Below are positions 33,622 through 58,178 of a stretch of 64,000 bases of DNA, piece after piece. Each line of letters starts with the position of its first letter. The stretch's first letter is position 1. Under the pieces are notes generated by a model. That model was not told the origin of the DNA, did no database searches, and worked only from the letters and a program-made list of their open reading frames with translations. Origin of the DNA: Spirochaetia bacterium (lineage in GTDB: Bacteria > Spirochaetota > Spirochaetia > CAKZLE01); the NCBI GenBank assembly GCA_963677595.1, contig OY782041.1, positions 2,560,001-2,624,000 on the forward strand, read 5' to 3'. Made by a program: the position numbers and the translations under genes.

Positions 33622-33661
33622 TCATGGCTGAGAAAGTAGTATGACTGTAGTTGAGAAGTCA

Positions 33662-33840
33662 TAGATGCTATCCTATTCTTGACGGAGAATGGGAACCGGT
33701 GATCGTGTAATGATCTATTGTGATGGATGCTGGACTTTCAGACATACCTCAATGAGAAAGATACACTGACCGGTCATCGAAGACTACTTGGAGACTTCCC
33801 GGGGAATTCTCCCCGGGAATGATCTCAATAATAAAAATGA
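33662..33840 (+). ncRNA. Putative bridge/seek RNA of IS110 element 1
   Basis: Hairpins covary with the element 2 NCR; segments match its own target (TGAGAAAGA, GATCTATT) and donor (ACTACTT, AATAAA); ends approximate. Confidence 0.75.
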
Positions 33841-33909
33841 AGGGCATCTACGCACTTCCTGTCATAAAGCTTCCCAACTATCCGTTAATTTTATTTTGAG
33901 GAGGCTGCC

Positions 33910-35079
33910 ATGATAGACAGACCTTTACGATTGACGGCAACCAGGATCATCGGCTTGGATCTTTCCAAGAAGACTCTGGTTGGGTGTATGCTACTAGCAG
34001 AAGAAGGGTTCATGAAGAATCACTTCTTCAACGAGAAGATGAATGCTCAAGGACGTCAGCGACTCGCTGAACGGTTCAAAGCAGGAGATGCGATCTTCAT
34101 GGAGGGAGGGACCTCTTCCTTCAACCTCGCACGGTATCTGCTGAAGCACACCGAAGCAGACGTGTATGTACTCAACCCCATGAAACTGCATATCATCTTC
34201 GAGTCGATCTGCAAGTCAGATCGGCAAGATGCTGCAAAATTGGCTAAGTATGCACGGGATGCCCACCCGGAGAACTGGGTACTGGTTCCTATCCCGACTG
34301 AACAGGAATCTGCTGAGCGCTCAGTAGTCAAGCTTCACATCGCCTATTCACAGTATCGTACGAAGGTCATCAACAAGCTTCATGCGGTATTCACGGGAAT
34401 GGGGTTCCCTGACCTGAAGAAATCGGATCTGAAGGATCCTCGCAAGCGACGGGACTGGGTGGAGACCCTGCTCACCGAGGAGATAGCTCTATTCAGTGCA
34501 GGGCTCCTGCTCGAAGAGCTTGAATCATTGGAGTCGCAGATGGAACGTATTCATGAGAAGCTCAAGGAGATCATTCTCGCTCACCCACGAGAAGCTCTTT
34601 CCTGGCTCTCGATTCCTGGTATCGGAGACATCACGGCTGTAACGCTCATTGCCTTCCTCGGTAATGGGGACCGATTCTCTTCTGCTAACCAACTGAGGAA
34701 CTATATCGGTCTCATCCCGAAGAAGGATCAATCCGGGACGGTCGATAAGCATCTTGGGGTCTCTCGTCACGGGTGTATGCCGATCAGGAGGCACATCATG
34801 CAGGGAGCTTGGGGGATCAAGAGCTTTAGGAGAGATTGTTCTCTTACTCGGTACTGGCAGCGTCTTGAAAGCCGACGGAAGCTTGGTCAGAAAGCATCAG
34901 TTGCCATTGCTAATAAGATGCTCTCTATCGGATTCGCTCTGCTGAAGAACGGTGATATCTACCGGATGCCTGACGGGGAACAGTATCTGTTGAAGAAACT
35001 GCAATACTATAAACTTGAAGCTCTCATCGGAACCCGATCCTGCAAGATTAATTCCGATAAGAGCTCAATAACCAGCTAA
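33910..35079 (+). CDS. IS110-family DEDD recombinase
   Basis: GLDLSK, FMEGG, KSDRQDA (DEDD); SIPGIG; GLIPKKDQSG catalytic Ser motif. Confidence 0.95.
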   Translation: MIDRPLRLTATRIIGLDLSKKTLVGCMLLAEEGFMKNHFFNEKMNAQGRQRLAERFKAGDAIFMEGGTSSFNLARYLLKHTEADVYVLNPMKLHIIFESICKSDRQDAAKLAKYARDAHPENWVLVPIPTEQESAERSVVKLHIAYSQYRTKVINKLHAVFTGMGFPDLKKSDLKDPRKRRDWVETLLTEEIALFSAGLLLEELESLESQMERIHEKLKEIILAHPREALSWLSIPGIGDITAVTLIAFLGNGDRFSSANQLRNYIGLIPKKDQSGTVDKHLGVSRHGCMPIRRHIMQGAWGIKSFRRDCSLTRYWQRLESRRKLGQKASVAIANKMLSIGFALLKNGDIYRMPDGEQYLLKKLQYYKLEALIGTRSCKINSDKSSITS

Positions 35080-35589
35080 AGCCAATCTAACGGTTTTAGC
35101 CTATCACTAACCACCTCCCCACGCAAGTCCTTATTTTTAAGGTCTCGGAGAATTGTGTCTATTTGAATTGCCAAAACTTTCTTGTTTATACCTCTTGACA
35201 TCTACAGACAAATAAAGAGATCTATGTCTATGCAGATTGGGAAGGGATTTCAGGTCCTGAACTCATAGGGACTCTTACCGTCGACAGGACCAGGGGGAAG
35301 GACTTCTACGGTTTCTCATATGCCGATACCTGGCTGAAAAGCGAACATCAGGCGATCCTGTCTCGTTCTGGAAAAGCACAGAATCCCCGAAATGGAACAA
35401 TCCCTGTATGCATCAGCTTTCAAGGTTGAATTGACCTCATAGCTCTGTTTCTGGGATTAGGGATGATATAAAAAAACGGGATGGTGCACATCGTGTCGTT
35501 CAGGTAGTTGTTGATCCCCACGATCTTCTCAACACGCGGGGTAAGATATCCCTGTTCAAGGGCAGTCCCTGCCTCCGTGAAGAGGGGGG

Positions 35590-55171: not shown

Positions 55172-55231
55172 TGTTTCTATCGATAGAAACAATTTGCAGG
55201 ATTACTATATATGTTTCTACGAATAGAATCA
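55172..55231. promoter_or_regulatory. Tandem palindromic operator pair
   Basis: Perfect 20-bp palindrome TGTTTCTATCGATAGAAACA (55172) and imperfect copy TGTTTCTACGAATAGAATCA (55212). Confidence 0.65.
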
Positions 55232-55297
55232 ATAGGGTCTGAAGAATTATAATGTCCACATAAGAGATTGATGCTTTCAGTCTCTTATTCTGGAAGG

Positions 55298-55490
55298 TTC
55301 GATGTTATTCTGGACTTGACGGAGTCCGGAAGCCGGTGGTCATGCGACTACGTTTGTGAAACACGTCTGTTGACGGTGATTTCTTTGAAGAAAATACACA
55401 GACGCCGGCCATCGAAGTATAAGGTGGGACTGATGGAGGATGGTGAGCATCCGGTCATATCCTCCATCTGAGCCCGATAATAAAAATGAA
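55298..55490 (+). ncRNA. Putative bridge/seek RNA of IS110 element 2
   Basis: Homologous structure to the element 1 NCR; TGAAGAAAA matches its target; TATAA and AATAAA match its donor; ends approximate. Confidence 0.7.
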
Positions 55491-55554
55491 AACAACGAAC
55501 TGCTAAAAAGCCTTCCGGATATCTTCCGCCAATCTATTTTTAGGAGGTGGCAAG

Positions 55555-56706
55555 ATGAATGGAAACTTGCCAGAAGGTTCTCGGATCATAGGGCTCGACC
55601 TATCCAAGAAATCGTTCACAGGATGTATCCTCTCCGGTACGGGTTACGTGAAGAAGCAGTACTTTTCGGGGAAGATGACGCAGGAAGACCAGGGGTGGAA
55701 ACTCATACGTGACTACATCCATGACGGAGACCTGGTACTCATGGAGGCAGGCACCTCATCGTTCACGTTAGCCCGGTACCTGCAGCGACGTTCGAAAGCG
55801 AGTAAGGTGATCGTCTTGAATCCCGGTACGCTGCGCATCATCTGGATGAGCCATCAGAAGAATGACAAAGCAGATTCGGCAAAGATTGCCTGTGTCGCCA
55901 GGGACATGCCTGAGGAGGCCTGGCCGGTAGTTCCTATACCTACCGATCAGGAGCAGGCAGAACGATCATGTATCACCCTGTATGTGTTCTTTAAACGGGA
56001 AGAGACGCAGTTGATCAACCGTCTGTATGCGCTGTATAACTCACTGGGCTATCCGGAGATCTCCCCAGCGATCCTCAAGGAGCAGCCGGAGGGACGGCAT
56101 GCGTTAGCCCGGAAGTTGTTGTCTGACTGCCCGACAGCCTTGGATGGGGCAGTCCTGCTGAATGAGCAGCTTGAGTTGACGCAGCATCATATTGAGGTGA
56201 TGATCGATAAACTGCGGAGCATCTGTCTGGCCCATCCGAAGCAGGCGCTCTCCTGGTTCTCGATACCGGGTATCGGCCTCATTAATGCAGCTACGTTACT
56301 AGCCTACATCGGAGATGGTTCACGATTCACCAAATCGTGCCAGCTGCTCAACTATGCAGGCCTCATCCCCAAGCAGGATCAAAGTGGTACAGTCGATAAG
56401 CATCTTGGGATCACCCATCGGGGCAATGCCTACATCCGCAGGAACATCGTCCAGGGAGCCTGGAGAGTCTCGAATATGAAGCCGGTTTGCCAGATTACCA
56501 AGTTCGCATATCATAAGAAAATGGCAGGAAAGAAGAAGCAGATAGTCGCTATAGCAGTCGCGAACAAGATGCTTCGAACGGGGTTGGCTATGCTGCATTC
56601 AGGAGAACTCTATTACCCCACGATCGAGGAGGGATACGCCAAGCTCGAAGCAAAGCTTCGATCGTACAAAGTACAGGCCCTTATGAATTCCATAGCAGAA
56701 AGGTAA
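55555..56706 (+). CDS. IS110-family DEDD recombinase
   Basis: GLDLSK, LMEAG, KNDKADS; SIPGIG; GLIPKQDQSG. Confidence 0.95.
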   Translation: MNGNLPEGSRIIGLDLSKKSFTGCILSGTGYVKKQYFSGKMTQEDQGWKLIRDYIHDGDLVLMEAGTSSFTLARYLQRRSKASKVIVLNPGTLRIIWMSHQKNDKADSAKIACVARDMPEEAWPVVPIPTDQEQAERSCITLYVFFKREETQLINRLYALYNSLGYPEISPAILKEQPEGRHALARKLLSDCPTALDGAVLLNEQLELTQHHIEVMIDKLRSICLAHPKQALSWFSIPGIGLINAATLLAYIGDGSRFTKSCQLLNYAGLIPKQDQSGTVDKHLGITHRGNAYIRRNIVQGAWRVSNMKPVCQITKFAYHKKMAGKKKQIVAIAVANKMLRTGLAMLHSGELYYPTIEEGYAKLEAKLRSYKVQALMNSIAER

Positions 56707-56713
56707 TTTCATA

Positions 56714-57947
56714 GGCTCTTTTCGTAAGTTTTAGTTATGGGCTATCGGCTGCAAGATCTTAGGAAATTCAAGATTTCTGACCTGCTTTGTCGTAGCCGTT
56801 TCCTTCCCCGGTACCATCAGAGATTTAAGAATGTCCACTTTTTCTGATAACCGTTTCGGTTTGTTCACTAACTTCCAAGCTTCCCACATAATATACAACT
56901 CAGCATTCTTCGTGGCAAAACTCGATCGGCTATGAGCTTTCTCTGCAATAATCGAGTGTAACGCATTCACCATCTGCAGATTGAACTGGCCATATCGCGA
57001 TTCCGTCTTTGAATCAAGCGCAACATGGGATAGTCCAGAATCCTGGGCAAACTTTATTCCGCCCTTGCTCTTATCGGTTACCAGAATCGCCTGAGTATTC
57101 AGCCGAGTGTCAAACGCATACCCCAAGCCCTCACTGCTGACCGTACCTCTCCCGATGGGTTTGCCAATCACATTGCGATCTTCATCTATCGCTGTAGCGA
57201 TGCAGACCTTATCCCTGCTCAACCCGCGTTTTTTGTCCTGGGAGCCACGCTGGTGAGGATGATCTCGGAATCCATACTTCTTATAGTCGGGGATCATGTC
57301 CGTATAGTCCTGTTCGATCCCTAAGTTTGCTACACTCTTCTTATTGCCCTTAAAGCTTGCTGGAAGATAGAATTCGTCTTCTTGGATGATCCCGGTTAGG
57401 ATTTTCCCCTCGACCGAATTCCCCACATGATTGAACAGCTTCATCCGCCATGCATGTGCTGTAGCTAGGGATATGTGGCACTTTTCAGACAAGATGGTTA
57501 ACGTATCATTACACAGCATGCCCTCGATGAAGGTATCCCAGGCTTGGTTTGAGGTTGCGCTGCCTTGCGATACCCGCCCTGTAGATACCCCAAAATATGA
57601 TCGGCACTCATTGCATCGATATCTTGGTTTCCCATATGCAGAACCGTTCTTCACCACATGAGTCGACCCACAGGTCGGACAACATATTGGTGTCGAACCT
57701 GCCTCCGGCTGCTTCCTGCCAGCTTCCAATGGAGAAACAGATTCAGTATTGTCAGGGGAAAGGCCATTTTCCTCTATCAAGGTATTCACGATTGTGATGA
57801 TGGCTTTTTTCTCTTCAACATCCTTCAGAGCATCCAGCATCTGCTGATAGATTTCCAATGCAATTTGTTCGTTACTTCCCATAGCTATAGTATAGCAGAT
57901 TTAAGGCCTGCTGTATACAAAAATCACTTTATCTTACGAAAAGAGCC
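56714..57947 (-). mobile_element. IS1595-family element nested in the right end of IS110 element 2
   Basis: Perfect 15-bp TIR GGCTCTTTTCGTAAG; 8-bp TSD ATTTCATA (56706-13, 57948-55). Confidence 0.95.
56731..57882 (-). CDS. IS1595-family transposase
   Basis: Zn ribbon CPTCGS..RYRCNEC, HTH, QEDEFY, VTDK. Confidence 0.92.
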   Translation of the reverse strand: MGSNEQIALEIYQQMLDALKDVEEKKAIITIVNTLIEENGLSPDNTESVSPLEAGRKQPEAGSTPICCPTCGSTHVVKNGSAYGKPRYRCNECRSYFGVSTGRVSQGSATSNQAWDTFIEGMLCNDTLTILSEKCHISLATAHAWRMKLFNHVGNSVEGKILTGIIQEDEFYLPASFKGNKKSVANLGIEQDYTDMIPDYKKYGFRDHPHQRGSQDKKRGLSRDKVCIATAIDEDRNVIGKPIGRGTVSSEGLGYAFDTRLNTQAILVTDKSKGGIKFAQDSGLSHVALDSKTESRYGQFNLQMVNALHSIIAEKAHSRSSFATKNAELYIMWEAWKLVNKPKRLSEKVDILKSLMVPGKETATTKQVRNLEFPKILQPIAHN

Positions 57948-58178
57948 ATTTCATAAGAGCCCCATAATTCAAAGTACCTCAGCGTTTCGCCTGTGTCTAT
58001 TCATAGGCTAGTATCATTATATGCAGATGTCAAGATTTAGATATGTTTAAAGTTTACTCTTGACTTATGTGGACAAATAAAAACATGAGAAAATATCTCG
58101 TCAGGGAATGGCAGGCGGTCCCAACCTACTGGACAACCGTGTCGTGGCGATTATGCTTACCTCAAGGGAGGATACCGC

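Follow-up and report, generated by a model that had tools for sequence, protein, structure and literature searches.

Within a 64,000-nucleotide window of a Spirochaetia genome (assembly GCA_963677595.1, contig OY782041.1), positions 55245-58081 contain two elements, a 1,593-bp insertion sequence (IS) of the IS110 family, here called element 2, and a 1,234-bp IS1595-family element nested inside it. Element 2 very probably carries out RNA-guided recombination at an AA core, and its left end is predicted to encode the bridge RNA that directs it. Coordinates are positions in this window unless a locus is given, and a second IS110 element of the same window, element 1 (33634-35216), serves as comparator.

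The boundaries and core of element 2 were observed in an empty allele. A contig from run X7 connects 55244 with 58080, omitting 2835 bases and leaving exactly two ambiguous letters (AA) at the joint, and the empty site must therefore read TGAAG-AA-AACATG. This is a 2-bp AA overlap with no target duplication beyond the short shared core; a three-base core (AAN) is excluded at this site, since the joint has two ambiguous letters and not three. A prior sequence-only reading of the window had proposed both the AA core and the outer boundaries, which this allele from another sample bears out, but had treated the interval as one single element, which the nested IS contradicts. Across the family, AA is present at 63 of the 65 left junctions that could be parsed and at all 52 on the right. 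Element 2 is single-copy in its own genome and, once the nested IS is subtracted, close in size to element 1. Its noncoding region (NCR) spans 308 bp to the left of the recombinase gene, versus about 130 bp to the right with the nested IS removed. In the same-genus genomes G001 and G002 the gene order is different and no orthologous site was found.

The nested element is bounded by 25-bp terminal inverted repeats (TIRs; 56714-56738 and 57923-57947) and encodes a 383-amino-acid transposase scoring 82.6 bits against the NCBIfam IS1595 model NF033547 (cut-off 75). Contigs of runs X2, X6, X3 and X5, from two studies, connect 56705 with 57948 with eight ambiguous letters and represent IS1595-free alleles. 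Together, the inverted repeats, the flanking copies of ATTTCATA and these contigs demonstrate an IS1595 jump into the IS110 right end, at the recombinase stop codon, that left the reading frame and both IS110 ends intact. With its N-terminal zinc ribbon, GGC-initiated TIRs and 8-bp duplication, the newcomer is an ordinary member of its family. It has one copy in this assembly and is missing from close relatives, and the right end in G003 is uninterrupted.

The protein sequence identifies element 2 as a clear IS110-family member, with a DEDD RuvC-like domain and a C-terminal domain containing the catalytic serine. Residues D15, E64, D104, D107 and S277 are present, conserved in the family alignment and aligned to IS621 and ISCro4, whose complexes were also the best fold matches in a structure comparison. 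The NCR folds far better than shuffled sequences (z = -5.28) and had no match in Rfam. In the predicted RNA, a long closing stem leads into a multiloop from which a GACG-loop hairpin (55308-55331), the target arm and a donor hairpin project, with the right and left donor guides also lying within it; when the guides are held open, the target arm becomes an internal loop with the top-strand guide on its 5' side. Element 1 folds alike, with the closing stem, GACG hairpin, target arm and donor hairpin in place and both donor guides single-stranded.

Relatives for comparison were gathered from 401 genomes of the class (nine with a match), 43 metagenome loci and 34 genome loci; an initial scan of genome contigs using a single protein had given no match. 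Counts exclude the distant loci L026, L027, L030, L033 and L035, own-genome duplicates (which were re-extracted directly), rows in which an end was missing or the loop could not be parsed, and repeats of the same guide-flank pair, and nine rows of the guide-flank set were repaired by hand. Over 40 sequences, the consensus scaffold helices are 96.9% paired, a value reached by 0 of 500 shuffles, and 13 of 26 scaffold pairs show two-sided changes, with slid controls dropping to 31-50%; these counts used helices 1-4 and are inflated by relatedness among the sequences. The duplex closing the 5' and 3' ends averages -11.1 kcal/mol for own pairs (47 sequences), compared with -8.5 kcal/mol for pairs between clades and -7.0 kcal/mol for shuffled ones. 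The shared scaffold with compensatory changes that the sequence-only reading described is thus recovered as covarying helices. Both TGACGG hairpins are as it quoted them, each NCR has a single occurrence of TTGTGA, TACAC, CATCGAAG and ATAATAAAAATGAA, and TGAAGAAAA from 55386, TATAAGG from 55418 and CTACGTTT from 55348 lie where it placed them. Its GATG...CATC closing stem holds for element 1 (33662 with 33844) but not for element 2, where the 3' partner of GATGTT is AACAAC near 55488-55500 and the CATC at 55410 closes the target loop. Pairing of GATG with that CATC is fully compatible but has no two-sided change and was rejected. No handshake guides of the IS621 kind could be assigned by eye.

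Covariation between the loops of this RNA and the flanking target DNA carries the argument for guidance. Between the left target guide and its own flank, 4.32 of 6 positions agree, versus 2.97 of 6 after permutation (62 pairs, z = 13.0), in register 0 only, and the signal extends from -1 to -5 with none at -6 to -8. It persists when each distinct guide is counted once and permutation is confined to members of the same clade (z = 9.2, n = 46). Left-guide bases other than A match at 13/15 (-2), 10/11 (-3) and 19/28 (-4), where 9-14% would be expected. For the right guide, anchored on the 5' stem, the match is 3.62 of 7 versus 2.33 of 7 (50 pairs, z = 8.6), with signal at several registers: a one-base slip gives z = 6.0 and the within-clade test z = 6.0 (n = 40), while two of five clades are weak (z about 2). 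Out of sample, five left ends of G052 have one right guide in common, predicting AACTCCCT, and all five unassigned right flanks of that genome have CTCC or TTCCC within their first 10 bases. These flanks start ACTCCC, ACTCCCT, CACTTCC, AACCTCC and AATATCTCCC; the block is present and its distance from the core varies. Of four right flanks in G005, two fit guides seen there and two fit poorly. These comparisons show that the loops of the predicted structured RNA covary with target DNA, within clades as well as across them, and that right-target recognition is relaxed in the whole family.

The sequence-only reading took elements 1 and 2 as two naturally reprogrammed variants of one RNA family, a description that the covarying scaffold and the family-wide guide-flank covariation support. 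As a two-element control the comparison was thin, since the two left guides have three of five bases in common; it is the relatives that make the covariation strong. A cleaner reprogramming control than element 2 lies elsewhere in the genome, where element 1 has five full copies and one left-end fragment with three different target-guide sets. The copy at G000:C1:145121-146705 is 96.5% identical to the window copy, both of its target guides are altered, and its flanks are changed to match (left 5/5; right 4/7 plus two G-U pairs). The fragment (L120, G000:C1:253783-253963) carries the third guide set, ends within the donor hairpin and is without a recombinase.

The right donor guide matches the left end at 4.1 versus 2.7 of 6 positions (20 end/guide types) in a single register, a clade-confounded comparison, and TATAA of element 2 and ACTAC of element 1 face the left end in the same register. 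An earlier remark that TATAA matches the left end but is followed by GG rather than TT is right as to the bases, but GG is not peculiar to element 2: the bases opposite the donor core are TG in 39 of 65 cases, TT in 13, GG in 10, CG in two and AG in one. Because TT occurs in only 13 of 65, core pairing on the right-donor side is likely dispensable or discontiguous. The candidate left donor guide is nearly invariant in the family. Joining of the two ends would give TTGACT-17-TATAAT, with the -35 hexamer at 58060-58065 and the -10 hexamer formed from the left-end extension and 55253. TAnnnT at 17-bp spacing is found in 61 of 62 parsed rows, duplicates included, which independently supports a junction of 6 + 2 + 4 bases, and a promoter created at the circle junction is predicted. 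Among the G005 copies L002, L009, L014, L114 and L115, the left-end extensions vary (TTATAA, TTATAC, TCATAC, TTATAT and TTATGA), which alters the -10 hexamer of the predicted junction promoter.

For the mechanism beyond sequence, namely RNA expression from the left end, circle formation, RNA-DNA pairing and catalysis by the recombinase, we infer all steps from IS621 and ISEc11. Element 2 would circularise, and end joining would build the consensus promoter, from which both RNA and recombinase would be transcribed. The target loop would read five bases left of the core strictly and about seven to the right loosely, tolerating G-U pairs and one-base slips on the right, and the multiloop guides, aided by the 12-bp sub-terminal repeats, would hold the donor junction.

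Published rules hold that the position of the RNA, the kind of repeats and the order of the guides go together in two contrasting packages. PMC11187229 gives the IS1111 group sub-terminal inverted repeats (sTIRs) of 11-13 bp, 7+3 extensions, a downstream NCR and the top-strand match first; for the IS110 type it describes an upstream NCR with the matches in the opposite order, and it notes a few position exceptions. PMC11208160 adds that phylogeny can be predicted from where the RNA lies and that the donor guides of IS1111 elements are often found in a multiloop. Element 2 fits neither package. As in the IS110 group, its long NCR is upstream of the transposase gene, as it is in every relative where it could be parsed, but its sTIR is a perfect 12-bp repeat rather than absent, short or imperfect, and the top-strand guide at 55347 precedes the bottom-strand guide at 55386. 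The latter two traits are those of the IS1111 group, whose extensions of 7 (or 6) left and 3 right are replaced here by 6 + 2 core + 4, a 12-bp junction spacer. The lineage thus mixes an upstream, IS110-group RNA with the sTIRs, guide order and multiloop donor guides of IS1111.

One way to accommodate this mixture, which we consider unlikely, is that element 2 is no more than another of the IS1111-group exceptions already on record with an upstream NCR, such as ISMtsp17. It shares with ISEc11, ISPa11, ISKpn4 and IS5075 the long sTIR and top-strand match first (PMC11187229), multiloop donor guides (PMC11208160, section 12), a junction promoter and natural reprogramming (ISEc11/ISXne4); its GL-P----SG motif is an IS1111 trait, and section 6 of PMC11187229 does record an upstream NCR in a few IS1111 members. 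However, the protein has 383 residues against 330-350 for IS1111 transposases, the junction spacer is 12 bp rather than 7+3, and identity to IS5075 is only 26%, the comparison with ISLin1 (31% identity) giving 48 versus 16 orders of magnitude in E-value, which would argue against membership. The Leptospira element ISLin1, labelled family IS110 in the PMC11187229 source data, is the best named match in the plasmid collection. Its NCR, too, is upstream and has the same GACGG hairpin, after which comes CCGGTGG, and by eye one ISLin1 site and four G097 copies also place the top-strand guide first; the core, ends and donor region of ISLin1 differ, its right end is shorter and its repeats are imperfect. 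L026, L030, L033 and L035 (G097), L027 (G299) and L116 (ISLin1) are all distant relatives at 31-35% identity that keep the upstream GACGG hairpin and differ in core and donor region, and the leader of L027 is much longer. With IS621 and ISCro4 (IS622), element 2 shares the DEDD plus serine fold, left-end RNA, 2-bp core, junction promoter and separate target and donor guides; in contrast, its guide order is reversed, its sTIRs are long, its core is AA and not CT, its protein is about 21% identical, it would read five left bases and about seven right bases loosely, and its donor core is not reliably paired.

We tentatively propose, as a plausible but far from secure reading, that this lineage and ISLin1 constitute a third architectural class, with left-end RNA, IS1111-type guide order and multiloop donor guides, an AA core whose A-tract setting would allow the right guide to slip, and guides repeatedly reprogrammed to intrinsic-terminator tails as safe harbours. 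If this is correct, RNA position and guide order would not be tied together as published, and the lineage would represent an intermediate stage in the relocation of the RNA from one element end to the other. A literature search that covered sources outside subscription journals and TnPedia returned, in the text available, no description of the lineage, of the ISLin1 RNA or the order of its guides, or of guides directed at terminators. The novelty lies in the mixed architecture, in an AA core combined with right-guide slippage and, likely, in terminator targeting; natural reprogramming has already been described and the in-window comparison is modest, and more interest attaches to the sub-terminal repeats, junction promoter, IS1111-type guide order and nested IS1595. 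Genome-writing tools are being engineered from bridge recombinases, for which solved structures were found of IS621 and ISCro4. A mixed lineage tests whether guide order depends on protein clade or RNA position, offers an AA-core enzyme for AT-rich targets with more than 40 natural guide variants, and provides in its loose, slipping right-guide recognition a natural case relevant to off-target design.

Whether element 2 sits at a proper target can be judged from its own flanks. Its left guide matches its own flank at 5/5 and reaches at most 3/5 on 61 of 61 other family flanks, so the left match exceeds chance. The sequence-only reading had called the right-target match poor and suggested a relaxed or off-target site. 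This was mostly a register error of one base: the score is 2/7 in the register used there and 4/7 plus one G-U pair in the family's modal register, and the consensus it offered, TGAAG-AA-ACGTAG, should be TGAAG-AA-AACGTAG. The corrected match, whose first three bases are contiguous, sits at the family median (among 50 family sites, 24 score lower and 19 higher), and none of the 2127 TGAAGAA sites in the genome exceeds 5/7 on the right. 'Relaxed' therefore suits right-target recognition in the family as a whole, and 'off-target' finds no support for element 2, whose site looks typical, though the right match alone proves little. It is consequently unlikely that the site of element 2 is off-target or a half-match and that only the left guide recognised it, even though half-match insertion has been reported for IS621 (10.64898/2026.08.31.748434) and the right guide is able to pair with the scaffold instead.

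Several observations weigh against guided recombination as we read it. The right match of element 2 is not significant alone, 4/7 or better being reached by 152 of the TGAAGAA sites (~7%), and the right-guide register was picked post hoc, with 14 of 50 family sites matching at 2/7 or less in it. No second insertion with the exact guide set of element 2 was found in its own genome, five family genomes or viral contigs, G005 having only relatives with other guides, and no circle joint was seen in the sample contigs over two rounds of comparison with the window, the second of which added no flanks. The cost of opening both guides is 5.7 kcal/mol for element 2, the sixth highest of 62. The left flank of L120 matches its own left guide at only 1/5, and the confounded donor-guide covariation is also imperfect, at 4/6 in the commonest type.

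Right flanks of the family fold better than shuffles (z below -2) in 25 of 56 cases, compared with 20 of 151 windows 60-180 bases beyond (Fisher p = 5.6e-6), and 21 of the 25 hairpins begin within 6 bases of the core. The A-rich left target followed by a hairpin would look like an intrinsic terminator's tail read from the other strand. Part of the enrichment may reflect selection, because control windows frequently fall in coding DNA and an insertion has its best chance of survival in an intergenic position. Like ISPpu10, ISPpu9 and IS621 beside palindromes, many relatives insert directly 5' of a GC-rich hairpin, but here the hairpin arm itself is the guide-matched right target, the sites are diverse instead of being a single repeated sequence, and the site of element 2 is without a hairpin; placement of element 2 at a terminator was rejected (z = -0.6). 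L085 and L104 insert just before a sequence that would resemble the terminal part of a 5S rRNA gene in the opposite orientation. Targeting by protein or structure, with A-tracts beside hairpins selected and guide matches left over from composition and shared ancestry, is highly improbable: close to the core both guides and flanks are rich in A/T, hairpins abound in the right flanks and a target stem-loop aids ISPpu10 (10.64898/2026.03.19.712850), but non-A guide bases match far above expectation at -2, -3 and -4, and the signal is register-specific and persists within clades.

Features of element 2, its nested IS and the comparator, in window coordinates
Feature	Position	Strand	Basis or remark
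Left target half TGAAG (host DNA)	55240..55244	+	in empty allele; identical to guide bases 55386-55390
AA core, left copy	55245..55246	+	two ambiguous letters at empty-site joint
6-bp left-end extension TTATAA (right donor half)	55247..55252	+	
Left sub-terminal inverted repeat, 12 bp, perfect	55253..55264	+	
5' hairpin in leader, near predicted transcription start	55260..55289	+	fold; start inferred from -10 position
Predicted bridge/seek RNA (long closing stem and multiloop)	55290..55506	+	fold and covariation
Right target guide ACTACGTTT, complementary to top strand, 5' side of target loop	55347..55355	+	
Left target guide TGAAG and core AA, 3' side of target loop	55386..55392	+	
Right donor guide TATAA, then GG opposite core	55418..55424	+	
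Candidate left donor guide containing AATAAA	55477..55486	+	matches right end AATA and core
IS110-family DEDD recombinase, 383 aa, open frame	55555..56706	+	NF033542 181.6 bits, cut-off 140
8-bp target-site duplication ATTTCATA, first copy	56706..56713		
IS1595-family element, 1,234 bp, 25-bp TIRs	56714..57947	-	transposase open reading frame 57882-56731
8-bp target-site duplication ATTTCATA, second copy	57948..57955		
Rest of IS110 right end, including right sub-terminal repeat 58064-58075	57956..58079	+	
AA core, right copy	58080..58081	+	empty allele
Right target half AACATGAG (host DNA)	58082..58089	+	guide prediction AACGTAGT
Element 1, comparator; recombinase 389 aa at 33910-35079	33634..35216	+	44.8% identical to element 2 protein

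A further position in the target loop shows its own pattern. The guide base 3' of the core-facing AA (55393 in the window) equals the first left-end base in ~94% of rows, where 44% would be expected, and agrees with the first right-target base in 63% versus 48% expected. This signal is mostly clade-fixed; three states track within the element-2 clade, and element 2 itself is an exception. The base may pair with the post-insertion junction.

Other samples hold related insertions. Over 55245-58083, runs X2, X3, X5 and X6 contain a variant that is ~94% identical to element 2, lacks the nested IS and differs from it in both target guides; its contigs in X2, X3 and X5 end abruptly at both ends, as those of a multi-copy element would. 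In run X1, loose contig ends at 55245 and 57949 link other flanks to the left end of element 2 and to the IS1595 end, which suggests further insertions in that sample. Just outside element 2, a perfect 20-bp palindrome (55172-55191) is followed 40 bp away by an imperfect second copy (55212-55234); lying upstream of an ABC substrate-binding gene (55153, minus strand), the pair is likely a repressor operator pair.

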